Shown here: positions 1 through 7,402 of the stretch, one piece after another
How the letters are laid out: each line of letters opens with the position of its first letter
How positions within the stretch are numbered: position 1 is the stretch's first letter
Assembly: GCA_963785305.1 (NCBI GenBank)
Contig: CAWAUV010000002.1
Coordinates: 160,001 to 224,000 of the forward strand
DNA from: an uncultured Planctomycetaceae bacterium
GTDB taxonomy: Bacteria; Planctomycetota; Planctomycetia; Pirellulales; PALSA-1355
Direction of reading: 5' to 3'
Length of the DNA: 64,000 nt
Notes under the pieces: model-generated
What the model was told of the DNA's origin: nothing
The model's input: only the letters and a program-made list of their open reading frames with translations
Database searches by the model: none
Program-made: the position numbers and the translations under genes

Positions 1-25
1 ATGACGATCTCCAGTTCAGGCAAGG

Positions 26-100
26 GGTATCTGAGCGGAGTTGAACCGCCACCTTCTGGTTCACAGCCAGACGTGCAGAAACCGCTACACCACAGACACC
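26..100 (-). tRNA. tRNA-His(GTG), array member
   Basis: Anticodon loop CTGTGAA; G-1:C73 present. Confidence 0.9.
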
Positions 101-113
101 ATATAGTTGTCAG

Positions 114-186
114 CGCCCCGACCAGGAGTCGAACCCGGAATCTCTCGTTAGAAGCGAGATGTGATGATCCATTTCACCATCGAGGC
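114..186 (-). tRNA. tRNA-Arg(TCT)
   Basis: Anticodon loop CTTCTAA, T-loop TTCGACT. Confidence 0.9.
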
Positions 187-191
187 CCAAG

Positions 192-279
192 CGGAAGGCA
201 TGGGATTTGAACCCACATGACCCTTGCGGGTCGCACGGTTTAGCAAACCGGCCCGACCAGCCGTATTCGGCTACCTTCC
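192..279 (-). tRNA. tRNA-Ser(GCT)
   Basis: Loop TTGCTAA, long variable arm, G73. Confidence 0.9.
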
Positions 280-289
280 AAGTTGTCAG

Positions 290-360
290 TGGACCCACCG
301 AGAATCGAACTCGGATCTCCGCCACGCCAGGGCGGTGTCGTCCCGTTGGACCATGAGCCC
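290..360 (-). tRNA. tRNA-Ala(GGC)
   Basis: Loop CTGGCGT, G3:U70, A73. Confidence 0.9.
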
Positions 361-371
361 GTCGTTGTCAG

Positions 372-444
372 TGGACCGAATGGGAATCGAACCCATCGCA
401 CCGATCTTGCAAGGATCAGTCGCCCCCGTGGAACATGCCGGCCC
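372..444 (-). tRNA. tRNA-Ala(TGC)
   Basis: Loop CTTGCAA, G3:U70. Confidence 0.9.
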
Positions 445-454
445 GTACATCGAG

Positions 455-526
455 AGGTCCGTCCGGGAATCGAACCCGGCCTTCCTCCTTACCGAGGAGG
501 CGTGCGGCCAATAGCACTTACAGACC
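455..526 (-). tRNA. tRNA-Thr(GGT), C33 variant
   Basis: Stem CCTCC/GGAGG, loop TCGGTAA. Confidence 0.85.
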
Positions 527-530
527 AGAG

Positions 531-603
531 TGATCCCGGATGGACTCGAACCACCGATTTCCTGGATGTCGACCAGGCGTCTTGACCGCTGGACCACGGG
601 ATC
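531..603 (-). tRNA. tRNA-Val(GAC), C33 variant
   Basis: Loop TCGACAT, A73. Confidence 0.85.
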
Positions 604-608
604 GTGAG

Positions 609-685
609 TAACCGAGGTGGGCGTCGAACCCACAAAATCACGAGGCTCTCGACCTCGCCGCTTTGCCTAGTTTGCGTACCCGGCC
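609..685 (-). tRNA. tRNA-Leu(GAG), no variable stem, C33
   Basis: Loop TCGAGAG, A73, about 7-nt variable region. Confidence 0.8.
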
Positions 686-705
686 GTGAATATCGTCCTT
701 GCAAA

Positions 706-774
706 TTGCAGGTCCGGGTGTCGCACCCGGCGGTCCGGGCTTATGAGGCCCAGCTGAGCACTGGCTCACCTGCG
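706..774 (-). tRNA. tRNA-Met(CAT), initiator-like with reduced D-arm
   Basis: Loop CTCATAA, C1:A72 mismatch, T-loop TGCGACA, 69 nt. Confidence 0.75.
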
Positions 775-813
775 TCATGTCGGTCGGACGCGGTGCCCGC
801 CGACATAGTTCAG

Positions 814-897
814 TGACCAAGGGGAGAGTCGAACTCCCATGCCATTGATGGCACGACGTTCTGAGCGTCGCGTGTCTGCCAGTTCCACCACTTGGTC
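814..897 (-). tRNA. tRNA-Leu(CAG)
   Basis: Loop CTCAGAA, variable stem present. Confidence 0.9.
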
Positions 898-909
898 AAT
901 GTGATCGAG

Positions 910-982
910 TGACCCGTGCGGGAATCGAACCCGCCCTTCCAGCTTGAGAGGCTGGCGTCCTGAACCGATAGACAAACGGGCC
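910..982 (-). tRNA. tRNA-Glu(CTC)
   Basis: Loop CTCTCAA. Confidence 0.9.
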
Positions 983-988
983 GCTCAG

Positions 989-1070
989 TGCGCCGGGCAG
1001 GAGTTGAACCTGCAATGCCCGAAGGCGGGTGGGTTACAGCCACTTGGGCACGCCAATGCCCAGCCGACGC
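989..1070 (-). tRNA. tRNA-Tyr(GTA)
   Basis: Loop CTGTAAC, variable arm. Confidence 0.9.
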
Positions 1071-1078
1071 GTTTCGAG

Positions 1079-1157
1079 TGGCACGGGTCGGAGTCGAACC
1101 GACAGACAGATCACGAAGGTTTGAGCTTCGCCGCTTTACCGGTTTGCGTACCGTGCC
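1079..1157 (-). tRNA. tRNA-Leu(CAA), no variable stem
   Basis: Loop CTCAAAC, A73. Confidence 0.85.
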
Positions 1158-1165
1158 ATCACAAG

Positions 1166-1240
1166 CGTCCCCGGCGGGATTTGAACCCGCGATCTCCACC
1201 TTGACAGGGTGGCGAGCACTCCAGGCTGCTCCACGAGGAC
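1166..1240 (-). tRNA. tRNA-Asp(GTC)
   Basis: Loop CTGTCAA, G73. Confidence 0.9.
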
Positions 1241-1254
1241 AGATATATATTGAG

Positions 1255-1328
1255 TAGCTCAGGTGGGACTCGAACCCACAGCATCCCTGGTTCTAAGCCA
1301 AGGTGGTCTGCCAATTGCCTACCGAGCC
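1255..1328 (-). tRNA. tRNA-Leu(TAG), no variable stem
   Basis: Loop CTTAGAA, 74 nt. Confidence 0.85.
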
Positions 1329-1347
1329 ATGTCGCTGTCCATCGCAG

Positions 1348-1420
1348 TGCCCAGGGCAGGAGTCGAACCTGCAAACACTCGGGTTTAAGCCGAACCGCTC
1401 TGCCGTTGGCGTACCTGGGC
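1348..1420 (-). tRNA. tRNA-Leu(TAA), no variable stem
   Basis: Loop CTTAAAC, 73 nt. Confidence 0.85.
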
Positions 1421-1424
1421 GCAG

Positions 1425-1497
1425 TAGTCCCGGGTGGACTCGAACCACCGGTCGGCGCTTTGTAGGAGCGCTGCCTTTGCCGCTAGGCGACGGGACC
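1425..1497 (-). tRNA. tRNA-Val(TAC), C33 variant
   Basis: Loop CCTACAA. Confidence 0.85.
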
Positions 1498-1511
1498 GCG
1501 TATGCGTGAAG

Positions 1512-1582
1512 TGGACTCACTGGGATTCGCACCCAGATTTTCGGCTTGCGGAGCCGGCGTCTTCCTGTTGGACGATGAGCCC
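1512..1582 (-). tRNA. tRNA-Ala(CGC), C33 variant
   Basis: Loop TCCGCAA, G3:U70, T-loop TGCGAAT. Confidence 0.85.
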
Positions 1583-1596
1583 GAATGGATCGAAAG

Positions 1597-1682
1597 CGGA
1601 AGCGGTGAGACTCGAACTCACAAGCGGCCAAGTGCCGCCACCTGTTTTCGAGACAGGCTCCTCATCCGGCCGGATCACTTCC
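1597..1682 (-). tRNA. tRNA-Ser(CGA)
   Basis: Loop CTCGAAA, variable arm, G73. Confidence 0.9.
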
Positions 1683-1703
1683 GTAATTCAGCACTGCAAA
1701 AAG

Positions 1704-1778
1704 TTCCGGGGGTTGGAATCGAACCAACGACCTCCTGGTTCAGAGCCAGGCGTCACTACCAACAGCAACTACCCCGGA
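1704..1778 (-). tRNA. tRNA-Gln(CTG)
   Basis: Loop CTCTGAA, U1-A72. Confidence 0.9.
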
Positions 1779-1816
1779 TCGCGTTGTCTCGGCTGACACT
1801 CGCGCGAGTGCCTGAG

Positions 1817-1887
1817 TTCGGGGAGAAGGAATTGAACCTCCACCACCTGGTTCAAAGCCAGGCAGCCTACCGTTAGCCGATCCCCGA
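1817..1887 (-). tRNA. tRNA-Gln(TTG)
   Basis: Loop CTTTGAA, U1-A72. Confidence 0.9.
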
Positions 1888-1902
1888 TCGCGTTCGTGCG
1901 AA

Positions 1903-1974
1903 AGTGCCCTGTGGGAGTTGAACCCACCTCGCCAGCTTGGAAGGCTGGCACCTTTGCCGCTCGGCCAAGGGCAC
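1903..1974 (-). tRNA. tRNA-Gly(TCC)
   Basis: Loop CTTCCAA, U73. Confidence 0.9.
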
Positions 1975-1979
1975 ATGAG

Positions 1980-2063
1980 CGGAGGGAGAGGGAGTCGAAC
2001 CCCCAAGGCTTGTCGCTCGACTGTTTTCAAGACAGCTGCCATCGCCAGTCGGCTTGTCCCTCC
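1980..2063 (-). tRNA. tRNA-Ser(TGA)
   Basis: Loop CTTGAAA, variable arm, G73. Confidence 0.9.
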
Positions 2064-2071
2064 ACGCGAAG

Positions 2072-2143
2072 CTGCGGCGGCAGGAATCGAACCTGCAATC
2101 GTCTCCTTAACAGGGAGCTGCCTTACCGTTTGGCCACACCGCA
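2072..2143 (-). tRNA. tRNA-Asn(GTT)
   Basis: Loop CTGTTAA, U1-A72, G73. Confidence 0.9.
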
Positions 2144-2152
2144 ATGAATCAG

Positions 2153-2226
2153 TCAGGGCGGCTGGATTTGAACCAGCGCTCTCCTGCTCCCGAGGCAGGC
2201 GGAATTCCAGACTTTCCCACACCCTG
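2153..2226 (-). tRNA. tRNA-Pro(CGG)
   Basis: Loop CTCGGGA, C1-G72, A73. Confidence 0.9.
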
Positions 2227-2241
2227 ATGTCTTCAATTAAA

Positions 2242-2312
2242 AGCGCCCAGCGGGAGTCGAACCCGCACTTCCGCCATGGCAAGGCAGCAGGCTACCGCTA
2301 CATCATGGGCGC
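2242..2312 (-). tRNA. tRNA-Gly(GCC)
   Basis: Loop TTGCCAT, U73. Confidence 0.9.
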
Positions 2313-2326
2313 AAAGAATCGGACCA

Positions 2327-2340
2327 AATTGTCAAAGATC
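2327..2340 (-). promoter_or_regulatory. boxA-like antitermination element inside the tRNA array
   Basis: Sense GATCTTTGACAATT in a spacer; resembles rrn boxA (GCTCTTTAACA family). Confidence 0.6.
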
Positions 2341-2344
2341 GCAG

Positions 2345-2416
2345 AGCACCGGGTGGGACTCGAACCCACGTCGCCGCATTACGGGTGCGGGGTCCTCGCC
2401 GCTGGACGACCAGTGC
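2345..2416 (-). tRNA. tRNA-Thr(CGT), C33 variant
   Basis: Loop CCCGTAA. Confidence 0.85.
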
Positions 2417-2427
2417 CTAAGTGTCAG

Positions 2428-2500
2428 TGGGATCAGAGGGGCTCGAACCCTCACCGACCTGGGTAAGAACCAGGCATGCTGCCGCTAACACCTTGATCCC
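2428..2500 (-). tRNA. tRNA-Lys(CTT)
   Basis: Loop TTCTTAC. Confidence 0.9.
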
Positions 2501-2533
2501 GTCGTTCGTTTTGCTGTCGTTCTGTGCGCAAAC

Positions 2534-2605
2534 TCGGCGCGGAGGGAGTCGAACCCTCGTCTGATCCTTATAAGAGACCTGCTCTGACCGTTGAGCTACG
2601 CGCCG
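2534..2605 (-). tRNA. tRNA-Ile(TAT)
   Basis: CGGCGCG/CGCGCCG acceptor stem, GCTC/GAGC D-stem, loop CTTATAA, A73. Confidence 0.85.
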
Positions 2606-2639
2606 GCTAGGGCGATCGGTTGATCGCCGCTTCGACGAG

Positions 2640-2711
2640 TAGGGCCGGAGGGATTTGAACCCACACCTATCGGATTAAAAGTCCGGAGTGCTGCCGTTAC
2701 ACCACGACCCC
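2640..2711 (-). tRNA. tRNA-Lys(TTT)
   Basis: Loop CTTTTAA. Confidence 0.9.
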
Positions 2712-2800
2712 AAAGGTTGGTCGGGCGTATCCGTTTCGTGGGCTTGGTCTCGAACATCGTCTTGCGCGACATGTTGTGCCTCCTGCGTTCGCGTGCTCAG

Positions 2801-2871
2801 TAGTCCGGGATGGAGTTGAACCATCGCCGACGACATATCAGATCGCCATGCTGCCGTTACACCACCGGACA
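2801..2871 (-). tRNA. tRNA-Ile(GAT)
   Basis: Loop CTGATAT; first acceptor pair mismatched. Confidence 0.8.
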
Positions 2872-2889
2872 ACAACTCCGTCGCTTCAG

Positions 2890-2962
2890 TCGGGATGGTC
2901 GGACTCGAACCGACACGCTCGTGCTCCCAAGGCACGTGGGCTTGCCGTTACCCTACATCCCG
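2890..2962 (-). tRNA. tRNA-Pro(TGG)
   Basis: Loop CTTGGGA, C1-G72. Confidence 0.9.
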
Positions 2963-2986
2963 TTTGCCGTCACCATCTTCTGTCAG

Positions 2987-3059
2987 TAGCTCGTATGGGA
3001 GTCGAACCCATCTCTCCGGATTGAAAGCCCGGTATCCTGCACCGATAGACGAACGAGCC
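2987..3059 (-). tRNA. tRNA-Glu(TTC)
   Basis: Loop CTTTCAA. Confidence 0.9.
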
Positions 3060-3105
3060 GCGTGTTTTACCGTCCGCGCGCACCCTGGCGCGCACGTCGA
3101 GCGAG

Positions 3106-3177
3106 TGGGTCGGGAGGCGCTCGAATCCTCGTCTGCGGCTTTTCAGGCCGCCGCTAAACCGTCTCAGCTACCGGCCC
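3106..3177 (-). tRNA. tRNA-Phe(GAA), first gene of the array
   Basis: Loop CTGAAAA. Confidence 0.9.
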
Positions 3178-3222
3178 GTTGCTCTCCGATTCCCGCCGTC
3201 ATTCCTCCTGCTTCAGACCAAC

Positions 3223-3255
3223 AAAAAAGGCCCGATGTCCTTGCGACACCGAGCC
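3223..3255 (-). terminator. Intrinsic terminator/attenuator in the tRNA-array leader
   Basis: Sense GGCTCGGTGTC-GCAAG-GACATCGGGCC followed by T6. Confidence 0.75.
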
Positions 3256-3508
3256 TTTTGGGCTTTCAGACCGTTTTCGTCCGAGTGTCACAAGCGCAGG
3301 ATTGGGGGCGAGGTTATTCACGCCTGACCGCGTGCCTTGGGCGCACATGGTATCGCGCAGCGTGGAATAACGCTCCGCCATGCGTTCTCGAATCGAACTC
3401 GGTCGTAAAAACATCATCGAAGTCACGTTTCCCGCAAAATCCGAGGGCCCGTCAAAAGGCCCGTCAAAAAGCACTCGCGAATATTCGCATCGCGAGGGCA
3501 TACCCACT

Positions 3509-3537
3509 AGACGCCGGCCGCCGACAAAAGTTCGCGC
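3509..3537 (-). promoter_or_regulatory. Putative ECF-sigma promoter of the tRNA array
   Basis: GCGCGAAC-N15-GCGTCT (GAACTT-N16-TCTAG). Confidence 0.6.
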
Positions 3538-3850
3538 GAAATTTTTAGGAGCCTTCCGCCAGCAACGGGTTCGCGTCGGCCGGCACTTGGCGAGGCTGAC
3601 AAAAGCCACGATGGCATTTTTCAACAGTCCGCGAACCGTGATGTTGTTTTCGCCCGGCAAAACACGGCGCTTTTGAGGTTGTTCTCGTTTCCGCGCGACG
3701 TTTTCTGGAGTCCAACTTCACGGAAACCGCAAAAAACGCCGCGATTTTTTTGGCGGGGGCCGCGGGCCCAGAAACCGCCTGACAATTACCCGCCATGTCA
3801 TTCCCCACGGCAAGCATGGACATGGCGCCCGGCGTCTTCGGTTTGGCCTC

Positions 3851-4995
3851 TTACACGCCCTTGTGACTTAAGAGCGGGCGGAGCCGCCGTAGTGATCGGG
3901 TGAGGCGCCGCTGCGCGCATCACCGCGAAGATGTCCTTGTAGGCTGACGGCGCTTCATCGCGAAGCGACCGCGCATGGCGCTGGTCGAACCAAACGCCTT
4001 GCATTTCGTCGAGCAGTTGCCGCTTTCCGATCGTTCGCGCCGCCGCCGCGCGGCTCAATGCGCGTCCGGCGCCGTGGGAGCTCGAGCACAACGATTCGGA
4101 ACATCCGCGACCCAGCGTGTGAAAACTGGCCGTGCCCATGGAACCGGGCACAATTCCGGGCTCATCGGCCCGCGCCGACTGCGCTCCTTTGCGATGCACC
4201 CAAAGTTCGACGCCCTCATGGACTTCGGCTCGCACATGGTTGTGATCGGCATGGATGATCGAGTGTTCTTCAAGTCCGATGTCAAACAGTTCGTCGAGTG
4301 TTTCGGCGACGTTCGCCAGCATCGCCAGCCGATTGGCCGAGGCATAGCGCTGGGCCCAAGCGGCGTCGGCCAGGTAATTACATCCCCCGGGGCTTTCGGC
4401 GACGAAAAACGGCAGCCACTTGGCCTCGAGATCGATCTGGGCCAGCGAGGTGATGATTCGTAATGGCCTGGCCCATGCCGCGCAAACCCGAGTGAATCAT
4501 CACCCATAGTTGGTCCTGATCGTCGCTTTGAAATTCGAGAAAATGGTTGCCGCGGCCCAGAGTGCCCAACTGCACTCGCCCCTCGCGAGATTTCAGTTTA
4601 TCGAGTCGCGGGTGGCTCAGCGGCATGTGGGCGAGCGCCTCGGGCAAGGCCTCGGGCATTGTCCCCGCGCCATGTTTGAGCGAGGGAACCCGGCGATAGA
4701 GCGCGTCGAGGAGTTTGGCGGCCAAGCGCTCATCGGCCAGGAGTTCCGCGGCGCCCGAGAATCGCGCCGTGAGAATGCCGCAACCGATATCGCCGCCAAC
4801 GGCCGCCGGAAAGATTCGCGAGCGCATGCCCACGACGAGCCCGACGCACACCTGTTTGGCTAGGTGCGCGTCGGGCATTACCGCAATTCGCTCTACATCG
4901 TCTAATCGCGCCAAGGCTTCAATGGCGGCCGCGGCCTCTGGCGGCAGAGGCTCCGCGAGCCAGCAACGCGCCTTTCGATGCGAAGCGCGATTCAT
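3851..4995 (-). CDS. rtcB: RtcB-family RNA ligase (frameshifted in this sequence)
   Basis: Motifs MPDAH, VGGDIGCG, GTLGRGNHF, IHSG, HNH, HRKGA, PGSMGT, SHGAGR, DEAPSAYKDI across several frames. Confidence 0.92.
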
Positions 4996-5428
4996 TGGCC
5001 GCCCTCGAAGGCTTTCGGAGACGCGAGAAACTCGAACAACAGCTTCGGCGCCCGCTTCCGAGTAATCGCCGCCGCCACGCCGCGCGCAGGCGTCCGGACT
5101 CCGCGGCAAGGCGCGCGAGAACTTCGAACGGATCGAATGGCGCGGCGGGCTCGACCGCTGGAACCACGACCACAAGCAATCGCGACGCGTCGGGCGCCGG
5201 TCGAACTTCGGCCACTTGCAGGAGCGAAAGCAACTCGTCGCGACTCTCGCCGCCCAGCAAATAATTCAGCGTGTCTTGAGCCTGGCTGCAAAGCTGCAAG
5301 GTTTTGCGTCCGGATTTCCACCCGGCTTTGCCTTGGCGGAAGAAGTCCCGGGGATCGACGCCATCGTCATCTCGCGATTCGGAAGATAAGGGCGGCACTC
5401 GGCGCGCGGCCCGTCGTTTGGATGTCAT
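4992..5428 (-). CDS. RbfA-like (ribosome-binding factor A family) paralog, one frameshift
   Basis: LQVAEVRPAPDASRLLV ... GRLR ... AITRKRAPKLLF KH-like pattern; stop overlaps rtcB start (ATGA). Confidence 0.7.
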
Positions 5429-5548
5429 GGGTTCTCTCACGAGGAAAAAAGTCGCGCGCGGAGCGAGCGCCGTGGTATTCGCGTCGACGCGACGCGAGCC
5501 CTGAAGCGTGAGAGCCTGCCCCGAGAACCGGAGCCAGATAATGAGCAA

Positions 5549-5605
5549 TTAGCCGCGGTCGTCGCGCAGGCTCGGCGACACAAACAAGCAAATGGCGATG
5601 TTCAT
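5549..5605 (-). CDS. Putative leader peptide MNIAICLFVSPSLRDDRG
   Basis: GGAGGT 5 nt before ATG; 18 codons; followed by alternative helices. Confidence 0.55.
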   Translation of the reverse strand: MNIAICLFVSPSLRDDRG

Positions 5606-5672
5606 GGTCGACCTCCAGATTGGGGAGTGCTTGGCCTTTGCGATAGCGGCCCCGATGCCGCGAACGAACCCA

Positions 5673-5702
5673 AGACGCGGATGGGCCCGCGAAGGTTCGC
5701 GC
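5673..5702 (-). promoter_or_regulatory. Putative ECF-sigma promoter of the rbfA-like/rtcB unit
   Basis: GCGCGAAC-N16-GCGTCT, same boxes as 3509-3537. Confidence 0.6.
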
Positions 5703-5792
5703 ATCGGAAATCGCGGCAAGCCGGCGGACGTTGAGCTAGAAATGAACAAAGGACTCGCGGCATGGCGCCGTAAGTCCTTTGCTAGCTATGAG

Positions 5793-5876
5793 TGCGGGAA
5801 ACAGGACTTGAACCTGCACGAGGTTACCCCCACCAGGCCCTCAACCTGGCGCGTCTGCCAATTCCGCCATTCCCGC
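5793..5876 (-). tRNA. tRNA-Leu(GAG), canonical copy
   Basis: Loop TTGAGGG, variable arm, canonical D-loop. Confidence 0.95.
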
Positions 5877-5902
5877 GGGCAGTTGTGCTCCGTGTGGAGT
5901 AT

Positions 5903-7402
5903 TCAACTTTTTTGCCGCGGCGTCAAGCCATCGCCCGCCGAGATCGCGAACACATCCTTTAACCCGCCGAGCTTCTCGCTTTTGCCGCCGATCGCATGGA
6001 CCTCCGGGCCGACATGCGCCGTCACCAAGCTACCAAACAGCGTGAACGGGCTCGCCTCGACGATCGTCACCGGCAAAATCCGACCGATCTGACGCTGTGT
6101 GCCCGAAAACACCACGATGCGGTCGCAACGGGTGCGGCCCACGAGTTGCAACACCGGGCCCGACTCGCCCAGCTTTTGACTTGTTTTGCTTGGTCCCTCG
6201 ACGAGCACCTCCAGCGTGCGGCCGACCAGCGGCTGATTGTCTTCGTGGCTGATCGCGTTTTGGATCGCCAAGAGGTCGTTGTTGCGCCGCCGCTTCACTT
6301 CCTCGGGCACGTCGTCGGGAAAAAGTTGGGCTCCCTTCGTGCCGGGCCGCTCGCTGTATTTGAAGATGAAGCTGTTCTTGAAGCGGCATTCGCGCACCAG
6401 CGACTCCGTGGCGGCGAAGTCGTCTTCGGTCTCGCCCGAAAAGCCCACGATAAAATCGCTCGTCACGGCCGCCTCGGGCACAATCTCGCGAATGCGGGCC
6501 ATCATCTCGCGATATTCCTCCACCGTGTAACCGCGTTTCATGCGGCGGAGCACCGTGTTCGAGCCGCTTTGCGCCGGCACATGCAAATAGGGCGACACCT
6601 TGGGCAGGTCGCGCACCGCCTGGAGCAGGTCGTCGGTCATGTCGCGCGGATAATTGGTCACGAACTTGAGCCGATCGAGCCCCGCGATATCGCCGAGCGC
6701 CACGAGCAGGTCGGCCAATCGCCACAGGCGACCGCCGCTCGCGTGGCGATAGCTGTTGACGGTTTGGCCCAGGAGCGTGATCTCGCGGCAGCCTTCGGCG
6801 GCGAGTTGCTTCGCTTCGGCGATGATCGCCTCGGGCGGCCGGCTTTGCTCGGGTCCGCGCACCGAAGGCACGATGCAATAGGTACAGAATTTGTCGCAAC
6901 CGATCATGATCCGCACGAAGGCTTGGAATGGGCTCGGCCGCATCGTCGGATCGCGGAGCGGATCGTAACTCTCGAAGCTCTGCTCGACCACGTCGCGAGC
7001 GCCGGCCTTGCGATCAAGACTCACTTCAAGCTGTTCGCTCGCTCCGGCTTCGGCGCGGGCAATCAACTCGGCGGTCTGATGAATCTGGCCGGGCCCGACC
7101 ACGAGATCGACAAACGGGGCCCGCTCGAAGATGAGGCGTTGATCCTTTTGGGCCATGCAACCCAACACGCCGATGATTTTGTGCGGATGCTCGCGTTTGG
7201 CGTGTTTGAGTCGGCCGAGGGCGCTGTAGATTTTGTCTTCGGCGTGCTGGCGTACACTGCATGTGTTGAACAGTATCACATCGGCCTGGGCCGGCGCGTC
7301 GGCCAGTTCATAGCCCTCTTTGCGCAGACTGGCCACGACCAGCTCGCTATCGAGCATGTTCATTTGGCAGCCGACGGTTTCGATATAAAGTCGTTTGGCC
7401 AC
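5903..7402 (-). CDS. miaB: tRNA methylthiotransferase MiaB
   Basis: GCQMN, NTCSVR, radical-SAM CDKFCTYC, C-terminal TRAM-like domain. Confidence 0.95.
   Translation of the reverse strand: MAKRLYIETVGCQMNMLDSELVVASLRKEGYELADAPAQADVILFNTCSVRQHAEDKIYSALGRLKHAKREHPHKIIGVLGCMAQKDQRLIFERAPFVDLVVGPGQIHQTAELIARAEAGASEQLEVSLDRKAGARDVVEQSFESYDPLRDPTMRPSPFQAFVRIMIGCDKFCTYCIVPSVRGPEQSRPPEAIIAEAKQLAAEGCREITLLGQTVNSYRHASGGRLWRLADLLVALGDIAGLDRLKFVTNYPRDMTDDLLQAVRDLPKVSPYLHVPAQSGSNTVLRRMKRGYTVEEYREMMARIREIVPEAAVTSDFIVGFSGETEDDFAATESLVRECRFKNSFIFKYSERPGTKGAQLFPDDVPEEVKRRRNNDLLAIQNAISHEDNQPLVGRTLEVLVEGPSKTSQKLGESGPVLQLVGRTRCDRIVVFSGTQRQIGRILPVTIVEASPFTLFGSLVTAHVGPEVHAIGGKSEKLGGLKDVFAISAGDGLTPRQKS

Follow-up and report, generated by a model that had tools for sequence, protein, structure and literature searches.

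The DNA analysed here (the window) is a stretch of 64,000 nucleotides, C2:160001-224000, in the genome of an uncultured planctomycete that we designate G000, a 6.4 Mb assembly in 9 contigs with a GC content of 0.63. Coordinates without a prefix are window positions, contigs are numbered Cn, other genomes carry G numbers, and loci or regions fetched for comparison carry L numbers. At the left end of the window, on the minus strand, lie a long array of tRNA genes and, upstream of it, a two-gene unit formed by an RbfA-like gene and a short rtcB, with a housekeeping tRNA-Leu(gag) gene marking the upstream boundary of both. A first reading of the letters alone (the original prediction) had taken array and gene pair together as a single inducible island for translation rescue.

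With default settings, ARAGORN finds 31 tRNA genes between 24 and 3177, every one on the minus strand. Rfam adds a tRNA at 1512-1582 (48.3 bits), a long-arm tRNA at 1598-1682 whose anticodon, read by eye as CGA, makes it a Ser tRNA, and a weak tRNA-like match at 710-772 in a gene (706-774) with a CAT anticodon and a deviant T-loop. The window part of the array (24-3177, minus strand), delimited by ARAGORN, Rfam and a gene order shared with related arrays, runs from Phe-gaa, the first to be transcribed, to His-gtg. Its 34 tRNA-like genes all differ in anticodon and cover 18 amino acids, which is the composition that the original prediction had given. Its suspicion that the array continues past base 1 was borne out as well: the array extends 1.3 kb further left, to C2:158667, with seven additional tRNA-like genes detected at lowered ARAGORN thresholds (Trp, Thr-tgt, Arg-ccg, Arg-tcg, Arg-gcg, Cys and a deviant 'Ile-aat' with a broken acceptor stem) and, inside the array, an open reading frame (ORF) for an HNH endonuclease (C2:159409-159969; Pfam HNH, 54 bits). 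Two of the window genes, Leu-TAA and Leu-TAG (1254-1420), are 74-75 nt long with a variable loop of 4-5 nt and a class I shape, where bacterial tRNA-Leu normally has a long variable arm, and genes called Leu-taa and Leu-tag occupy the matching positions in related arrays. In total, the minus strand of C2:158667-163177 (4.5 kb) carries about 41 tRNA-like genes, which makes this a long array as defined by Tran et al., namely one of at least 20 same-strand tRNA genes at a density of at least two per kb.

The array is supernumerary, being additional to a complete set of scattered tRNA genes. Outside it, the genome has 54 scattered tRNA genes with 44 anticodons, and the only anticodons unique to the array are GCG (Arg), TAT (Ile) and the deviant AAT. 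The Ile-TAT gene (window 2534-2605) and the Arg-GCG gene (L001:18938-19011) both recur in related arrays, and their products would read AUA and CGY, respectively, without lysidine or inosine modification. Array tRNAs are only 53-73% identical to housekeeping tRNAs of the same anticodon (mean 64%, n=36), and the 20 best Rfam tRNA scores, out of 80, all belong to genes outside the array.

Among relatives, the distribution of the array is patchy: DNA matching it occurs in 13 of the 32 same-family genomes and in 22 of 400 other genomes of a phylum sample. The closest array, in G420, is 91-95% identical. In four same-family regions (L140-L143), arrays of 35-38 genes keep the order and have the HNH gene in the same place (80-93% identical), and the 42 genes of the array in L015 also follow the order of the window array. 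Because its gene order matches that of arrays elsewhere, the window array is more than a product of chance. To its left lie an NfeD-like gene and an SPFH gene, a native flank in which the SPFH gene has 88-92% identity to its counterparts in family genomes; this flank adjoins the arrays of family genomes and those of L047, L048 and L074. On our preferred reading, the array has been inherited within this planctomycete family. As a separate observation, L144 (G401:C1:6872000-6890000) has a collapsed array beside the NfeD-like/SPFH genes, consisting of a leader, Phe-gaa and then directly the deviant 'Ile-aat'; the same genome carries a full 35-gene array 1 Mb away.

The array has its own leader, which we compared across 16 arrays (the window's own and those of L015, L030, L071, L074, L112-L115, L117, L121 and L140-L144). 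A promoter motif, GCGAAC-N16-CGTCT at 3509-3535 (minus strand), has counterparts in the same place in 15 of them, where a loosened pattern, GAAC-N16-19-(G/A)TC, matches about 260-400 nt upstream of the first tRNA gene. We call this motif, and a similar one in front of the RbfA-like gene, extracytoplasmic function (ECF)-type on the basis of what we take to be the consensus of such promoters, a -35 GAAC and a CGTC-like -10 element 16-17 bases apart. Downstream of the motif lies the array leader ORF (MMFLRPSS..., 3288-3417, minus strand), placed by alignment with L140, L141 and L144. In 15 of the 16 arrays, the leader ORF ends in ...(P)LR(L/T/I)-TGA with the TGA inside the sequence GTGACAC; most of these ORFs have 31-51 codons and two are longer, as counted from the first ATG of the open frame. 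Both leader ORFs noticed in the original prediction exist, this one from 3417 and that of the RbfA-like gene at 5549-5605.

The sequence GTGACAC (3285-3291, minus strand), which holds the leader stop codon at 3288-3290, has its complement in GTGTCAC, which makes up the 5' half of a terminator stem, and represents a predicted antiterminator strand. The terminator itself (3225-3259, minus strand) was found by a terminator scan as a hairpin of 15 pairs with a T-run after the stem, and it is also formed in the minimum-energy fold (z -2.6). Over 10 arrays, 98.2% of the alignment cells in the terminator are paired, with two pairs changed on both sides, and 98.6% of those in the antiterminator, with one compensatory pair in two sequences, while slid controls for the two pairings reach 3-59%. 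With a short ORF, a terminator and a competing antiterminator overlapped by the ORF, the array leader has, to judge from its sequence, the anatomy of a leader-peptide attenuator. The classical attenuators of trp, his and pyrBI likewise combine a leader ORF with a mutually exclusive antiterminator and terminator, between which the position of the ribosome decides. Unlike them, the array leader has no evident run of codons for a single regulatory amino acid, its stop codon lies inside the antiterminator strand, and its output would be tRNA genes rather than a biosynthetic operon. Neither this leader region nor that of the RbfA-like gene matches a known family in Rfam.

The gene pair upstream of the array consists of the RbfA-like gene (4992-5428, minus strand) and rtcB (3851-4995, minus strand), which overlap such that the TGA of the former and the ATG of the latter share the sequence ATGA. 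The rtcB gene encodes a short RtcB paralog of about 381 residues, which has an intact homologue in L002, and its two largest pieces score 100.3 and 121.2 bits against PF01139, well above the Pfam gathering cut-off of 27 bits. The blocks PDxH, GxDIGCG, GRGNHF, HSGSRG, HNH and SSSHGAGR are invariant in 26 RtcB homologues and kept in the translation from the window; we take the residues in them to be catalytic, comprising the metal-binding Cys, His and Asp and the nucleotidylated His. A canonical, intact RtcB is encoded elsewhere in the genome (C8:1223724-1225016).

For the RbfA-like gene, no match of the window copy to PF02033 was found even at E <= 1, and four intact homologues that we scanned score 26.4-30.9 bits, under the cut-off of 34.7 bits. 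A homology search retrieved 147 proteins at E <= 0.01, most of which have precomputed PF02033 hits in the protein database. Intact homologues are about 143-145 residues long. An AlphaFold2 model built from a 32-row alignment has a mean predicted local distance difference test (pLDDT) score of 78.4 and values of about 90 or more for residues 41-130. Foldseek places RbfA structures at ranks 1-17 with a probability of 1.00 and target TM-scores of 0.45-0.83, and a profile search of the PDB sequences returns only RbfA (E 7e-4 to 4e-3). The canonical rbfA lies elsewhere (C7:1966576-1966887, 99.2 bits), and the window gene lacks the housekeeping context of rbfA, which is infB-rbfA-truB. By its modelled fold, the product is an RbfA paralog (type II KH-like) with a conserved, poorly modelled N-terminal extension of about 45 residues. 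We also considered a fused RbfA-RtcB form and rejected it: four long ORFs that span both genes (L009, L038, L053 and L060) proved to reflect out-of-frame read-through or, in L009, an indel near the 3' end of the RbfA-like gene, and a search for longer proteins gave one unrelated hit of 296 residues only.

A profile scan with one genome per species located 341 RbfA-like loci, of which we kept 80 for analysis. They come from Pirellulales, Planctomycetaceae, Lacipirellulaceae, Isosphaeraceae and Gemmataceae, together with a few metagenome-assembled genomes (MAGs) labelled otherwise, and the carriers of the RbfA-like/RtcB pair include two cultured species, Adhaeretor mobilis (HG15A2) and Aeoliella straminimaris. 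RtcB follows the RbfA-like gene directly in 43 of the 80 loci. Among the 11 RtcB-less loci whose neighbours were scanned, L023 (Singulisphaera acidiphila DSM 18658) has an adjoining RtcA, L028 has two RlaP genes and L050 a DEAD-box helicase gene. Because RtcB, RtcA and RlaP adjoin it, the RbfA-like gene belongs to RNA-repair neighbourhoods. As an observation apart, two MAGs with other labels have the gene too, one labelled Nitrospirales (L067, where leader and RtcB accompany it) and one Candidatus Nealsonbacteria (L080, where neither was found), reflecting either transfer or mis-binning.

Upstream of the RbfA-like gene is a conserved leader RNA (5423-5621, minus strand), which the covariance model R1 recognizes in the window with 123.9 bits. 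R1 matches 48 of the 80 loci, always directly upstream of the RbfA-like gene and regardless of whether RtcB follows. The leader, 190 nt long, contains in order a GGAGG and an upstream ORF (uORF) with an invariant GAGCCTG in its 3' part, a small hairpin, CAGGCTCTCAC, a GC hairpin with a T-rich tail, GTGAGAG, and the ATG of the RbfA-like gene. The uORF (5549-5605, minus strand) has 18 codons behind its GGAGG and carries GAGCCTGCGC in its 3' part, and a uORF with an aligned start is found in at least 37 of the 48 leader matches. RNAalifold indicates that GAGCCTG (5567-5573) can pair with CAGGCTC (5512-5518); as both are invariant, the pairing shows no covariation. The alternative partner strand, CTCTCAC (5508-5514), can pair with GTGAGAG (5434-5440) just before the ATG, with 80% of positions paired and a few compensatory changes, and this second pairing is suggestive. 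The GC hairpin followed by T6 at 5445-5471 could be a terminator. We also looked for further members of a leader-RNA regulon and rejected the idea, since R1 matches only its own copy in the genome, the next hit having an E value of 0.33.

In front of this leader lies the ECF-type promoter motif of the RbfA-like/rtcB unit, GCGAACC-N16-CGTCT (5673-5700, minus strand). The pattern [CT]GAACC-N15-18-GTC occurs upstream of 34 of 47 RbfA-like leaders compared with 96 of 9422 control windows (1.0%). This pattern was loosened after the sequences had been read, so that 34 of 47 is a post hoc figure, although the control windows were searched with the same pattern; the first, strict form, ending in ...[CG]GTC[TC], matched 4 of the 47 loci only. 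In Isosphaeraceae, a sigma-70-like TTGAC...TA..AT, recognized by eye, stands in place of the GAACC motif. The array and the RbfA-like/rtcB unit of the window carry similar GAAC...GTC promoter motifs, each followed by a leader of a different design.

We consider it probable, at roughly 60%, that the locus holds two separately inherited translation-stress modules lying side by side in this genome. From the parts, their conservation and the alternative pairings described above, we infer an ECF sigma factor, induction by stress, a direction for each switch and a target of repair. The array would be transcribed from its own ECF-type promoter and gated by the leader-peptide attenuator. A ribosome that reaches the leader TGA would cover GTGACAC, allowing the terminator to form and keeping the array silent; when ribosomes are slow or scarce, GTGACAC would instead pair with the 5' half of the terminator, leading to read-through into the tRNA genes. 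The second module would consist of an RbfA paralog and, in translational coupling with it, a short RtcB RNA ligase, preceded by a similar promoter motif and a uORF leader. One segment of this leader could form a helix either with the uORF or with the purine-rich stretch ahead of the start codon, which the leader seems to mask. Induced in this way, the two modules may act as the backup kit for repair that had been proposed for the locus.

Several results weigh against this reading on the side of control. No sigma-factor gene (Sigma70_r2) was found within C2:160001-224000, the nearest being at C2:72325 and C2:274806. The earlier proposal of control by an ECF sigma factor plus attenuation is in keeping with DNA and RNA elements that are conserved: the motif (at 34 of 47 leaders and, in its looser form, upstream of 15 of 16 arrays), the array leader ORF together with its antiterminator and terminator, and the uORF leader RNA. 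A promoter-motif regulon was tried and rejected, because the loose motif is not enriched genome-wide (53 occurrences against about 70 expected). The CTCTCAC/GTGAGAG pairing has sparse covariation, and a CT/GA repeat lets 63-71% of positions pair even in controls slid by 2 columns; the single leader copy of the window folds with a z of only -1.25. In the array leader of this assembly, an extra base, which maps to a run of five C at 3304-3308, puts the ORF out of frame by one relative to the conserved ...PLRL-TGA end.

Other contrary results come from the distribution of the two units. None of the 32 same-family genomes has an RbfA-like gene, none of the four full family arrays (that of G420 and three more) has an RbfA-like/RtcB pair nearby, and none of 12 array regions from 10 genomes of the 400-genome phylum sample has an RbfA-like gene within reach. 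The RbfA-like profile matches 47 of 401 phylum-sample genomes, and only 2 of the 22 other array-bearing genomes are among them, with the two features on different contigs, where about 2.5 would be expected if they were independent. In family arrays, homology to the window ends at about 3440-3570, which is the array's own promoter region. In 8 of the 80 RbfA-like loci, array tRNAs are found no more than 10 kb from the RbfA-like gene. The array, with its HNH gene, and the RbfA-like/RtcB pair are thus separate units whose adjacency recurs and is not conserved. The original prediction of a single island holds in part only: of the synteny that it wanted checked across Planctomycetota, the adjacency of RbfA-like gene and RtcB is found whereas the linkage to the array is not conserved. 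The empty-site comparison that we attempted had to be rejected, as the tRNA-Leu(gag) loci of G409 and G423 have other neighbours and define no insertion borders.

The same distribution would also fit two units that are chance neighbours, with the array a selfish, mostly silent element kept and spread by its HNH endonuclease, and the pair a functionally unrelated arrival next to it, downstream of tRNA-Leu(gag). All 32 other family genomes lack the pair while 13 have the array, the closest array, in G420, stands without the pair, and the phylum sample shows no co-occurrence at the level of genomes; moreover, HNH homing endonucleases have been proposed to spread such arrays (PMC8421152). The recurrence of the adjacency speaks for more than chance, since array tRNAs would fall this close to the RbfA-like gene in about 0.3% of loci, given one 20-kb target in a 6-Mb genome, and among the 45 loci whose flanks extend for 8 kb or more each way, five have at least seven array tRNAs. 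The array-linked loci keep the tRNA order of the window in varied arrangements (divergent in L015 and L074, upstream on the same strand in L030, downstream in L071 and L047), and the nine array-linked rows, the window's own included, are scattered over the RbfA-like tree, where well-supported branches force at least four changes (quick method, 137 columns). In addition, both units share the promoter motif, and an HNH homologue accompanies the RbfA-like genes of six further loci (L005, L030, L065, L071, L074 and L079). We regard an origin by chance alone as unlikely on this evidence, and separately inherited modules that meet repeatedly remain our preferred reading. As a side observation, L047 (7064-10620) has a layout like that of the window with two tRNAs only: RbfA-like, RtcB, Cys-gca, Thr-tgt, NfeD-like and SPFH.

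The genes of the pair were present, with their ATGA overlap, as the original prediction had described, and carry in addition three frame changes that it did not mention. Alignment with intact homologues places two in rtcB, near 4445 and 3925, so that the gene is read in three frames, and one in the RbfA-like gene near 5078, all of them in short G, C or GC runs. The locus could accordingly be a decaying remnant that no longer works, in which the RbfA-like gene, rtcB, the array leader and some of the tRNAs are pseudogenes. To judge the background, we examined other genes of the genome and found 6 of 20 DUF1501 genes split into two frames (C8:515151-516421 and C1:117986-119246 are examples of such control splits) and 7 of 21 sulfatase domains as well. 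A class-V aminotransferase (cysteine desulfurase-like) gene 13 kb away is also split, with Pfam profile positions 1-131 and 133-370 in separate ORFs (L001:5585-6779). With 13 of 41 control genes broken up likewise, the breaks may be assembly errors, and the completeness of only 84.7% for an assembly of 9 contigs also points to an indel-rich sequence. On the other side, the background of about 0.28 breaks per kb predicts about 0.44 in the 1.57 kb of the two genes, against the three seen (Poisson P ~0.01), which speaks for decay of the locus, as do the displaced frame of the array leader ORF, the broken acceptor stem of 'Ile-aat' and the deviant T-loop of the CAT-anticodon gene at 706-774. Away from the breaks, the proteins show 62-72% identity to intact homologues, with the presumed catalytic residues retained. 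Weighing these points, we hold assembly error to be likelier than real decay for the three breaks, and decay of the locus as a whole to be improbable. Any pseudogene call in G000 needs independent reads; a search for sequencing runs covering 3150-5900 listed none, and no RNA data set either.

The position of the locus directly 3' of tRNA-Leu(gag) (5792-5876, minus strand) bears on another explanation, in which array and RtcB are cargo of a prophage or integrative element, derived from a phage-type tRNA cluster that integrated at this gene. The tRNA-Leu(gag) was called by ARAGORN and is 87-94% identical to same-family tRNA-Leu genes, and a sigma-70-like promoter match of its own stands at 5898-5926. 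Phage tRNA clusters commonly contain HNH endonucleases and RtcB, and several relatives have partial tRNA-Leu copies. However, a Pfam search covering about 14 kb on the left and 17 kb on the right found no phage gene, be it for an integrase, a capsid or another phage protein. The NfeD-like/SPFH flank is native and adjoins the arrays of family genomes too, and within the family the array is shared by vertical descent, making such an origin very improbable. The partial copies themselves, found on G409:C4, G423:C186, G420:C4 and G402:C18, are second copies of the 3' half of tRNA-Leu(gag), separated from the full gene by 1.8-17.6 kb. This is the pattern left by elements that integrate at tRNA-Leu(gag), and the two regions fetched (G409 and G423) contain neither array nor pair.

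Long arrays as such are known. According to Santamaria-Gomez et al. 2021 (PMC8421152), they reach 43 genes, occur in Planctomycetes among others, have linked HNH endonucleases and, in some cyanobacteria, rtcB in their neighbourhoods; Tran et al. 2016 (PMC4758250) also list Planctomycetes among the array-bearing phyla. The notion that the architecture had not been described in planctomycetes fails for the array; on the RtcB-RbfA module, we found no publication in the searchable literature. In those accounts, the known arrays (L-arrays) resemble the present one in having dozens of same-strand tRNA genes on top of a complete scattered set, a patchy distribution, HNH linkage, rtcB in some neighbourhoods and a proposed role under translational stress (PMC8421152, PMC4758250). 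In Anabaena sp. PCC 7120, the L-array and rtcB are co-induced by translation inhibitors, and control is assigned to direct repeats in the promoter (PMC8421152), whereas the array described here has an ECF-type motif with a putative leader-peptide attenuator, and the partner of rtcB here is an RbfA paralog. The type of array is therefore already known, and what is new are the controls, comprising the ECF-type motif, the leader attenuator and the uORF leader RNA. In the searchable literature, we found no publication that joins 'tRNA array' with 'leader peptide', and none that pairs RtcB with RbfA as a module.

A precedent for the control of the pair is the PA5471.1 leader peptide of Pseudomonas aeruginosa, which gates the RtcB-like armZ together with PA5470, with ribosome-targeting drugs leading to read-through, as reported in the review PMC12057347. 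In both cases a short translated leader and downstream terminators would gate an RtcB-like gene. The two differ in that the leader sequences are unrelated, the partner is RbfA-like here and a release-factor homologue there, and the leader here seems to mask the stretch before the start codon and has no more than a possible terminator; a second attenuator of another design would gate the tRNA array.

For the function of the pair, the nearest comparison is PrfH-RtcB2, which is reported to repair 16S rRNA cut in the decoding centre (PMC9304027, PMC13166195, PMC9223846). It too is a two-gene unit of an RtcB paralog and a paralog of a ribosome-binding translation factor. The partner in the window has the fold of RbfA, a 30S assembly factor, instead of a release-factor fold. 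By analogy, the target RNA would be broken 16S rRNA of the 30S subunit, to which the RbfA-like protein would recruit RtcB or give it access. A more specific version, in which the RbfA paralog binds damaged 30S subunits and enables RtcB to close breaks in the 3' domain of 16S rRNA, as a second ribosome-repair system independent of PrfH, the uORF leader senses failing initiation or elongation, and the array belongs to the same ECF regulon as an emergency supply of tRNAs, is tentative and in our judgement doubtful.

The proposed attenuator would offer a concrete, mutable mechanism that ties transcription of the array to the progress of ribosomes, and its architecture recurs in 15 of 16 planctomycete arrays. 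To our knowledge, the role and the silencing of long 'cryptic' tRNA arrays are known for one cyanobacterium only. The RbfA-paralog family defined here, with 341 loci, many of them coupled to RtcB, and the uORF leader in 48 of the 80 analysed, may represent a new route of ribosome repair. If the more specific version given above were true, the slowing of ribosomes would itself trigger the replacement of tRNAs and the repair of ribosomes. Two tRNA-modification genes are found in the vicinity, miaB directly upstream of tRNA-Leu(gag) (window 5903-7402) and, 12 kb to the left, a gene for a QueG-like epoxyqueuosine reductase (L001:6997-7899), a linkage that may be coincidental.

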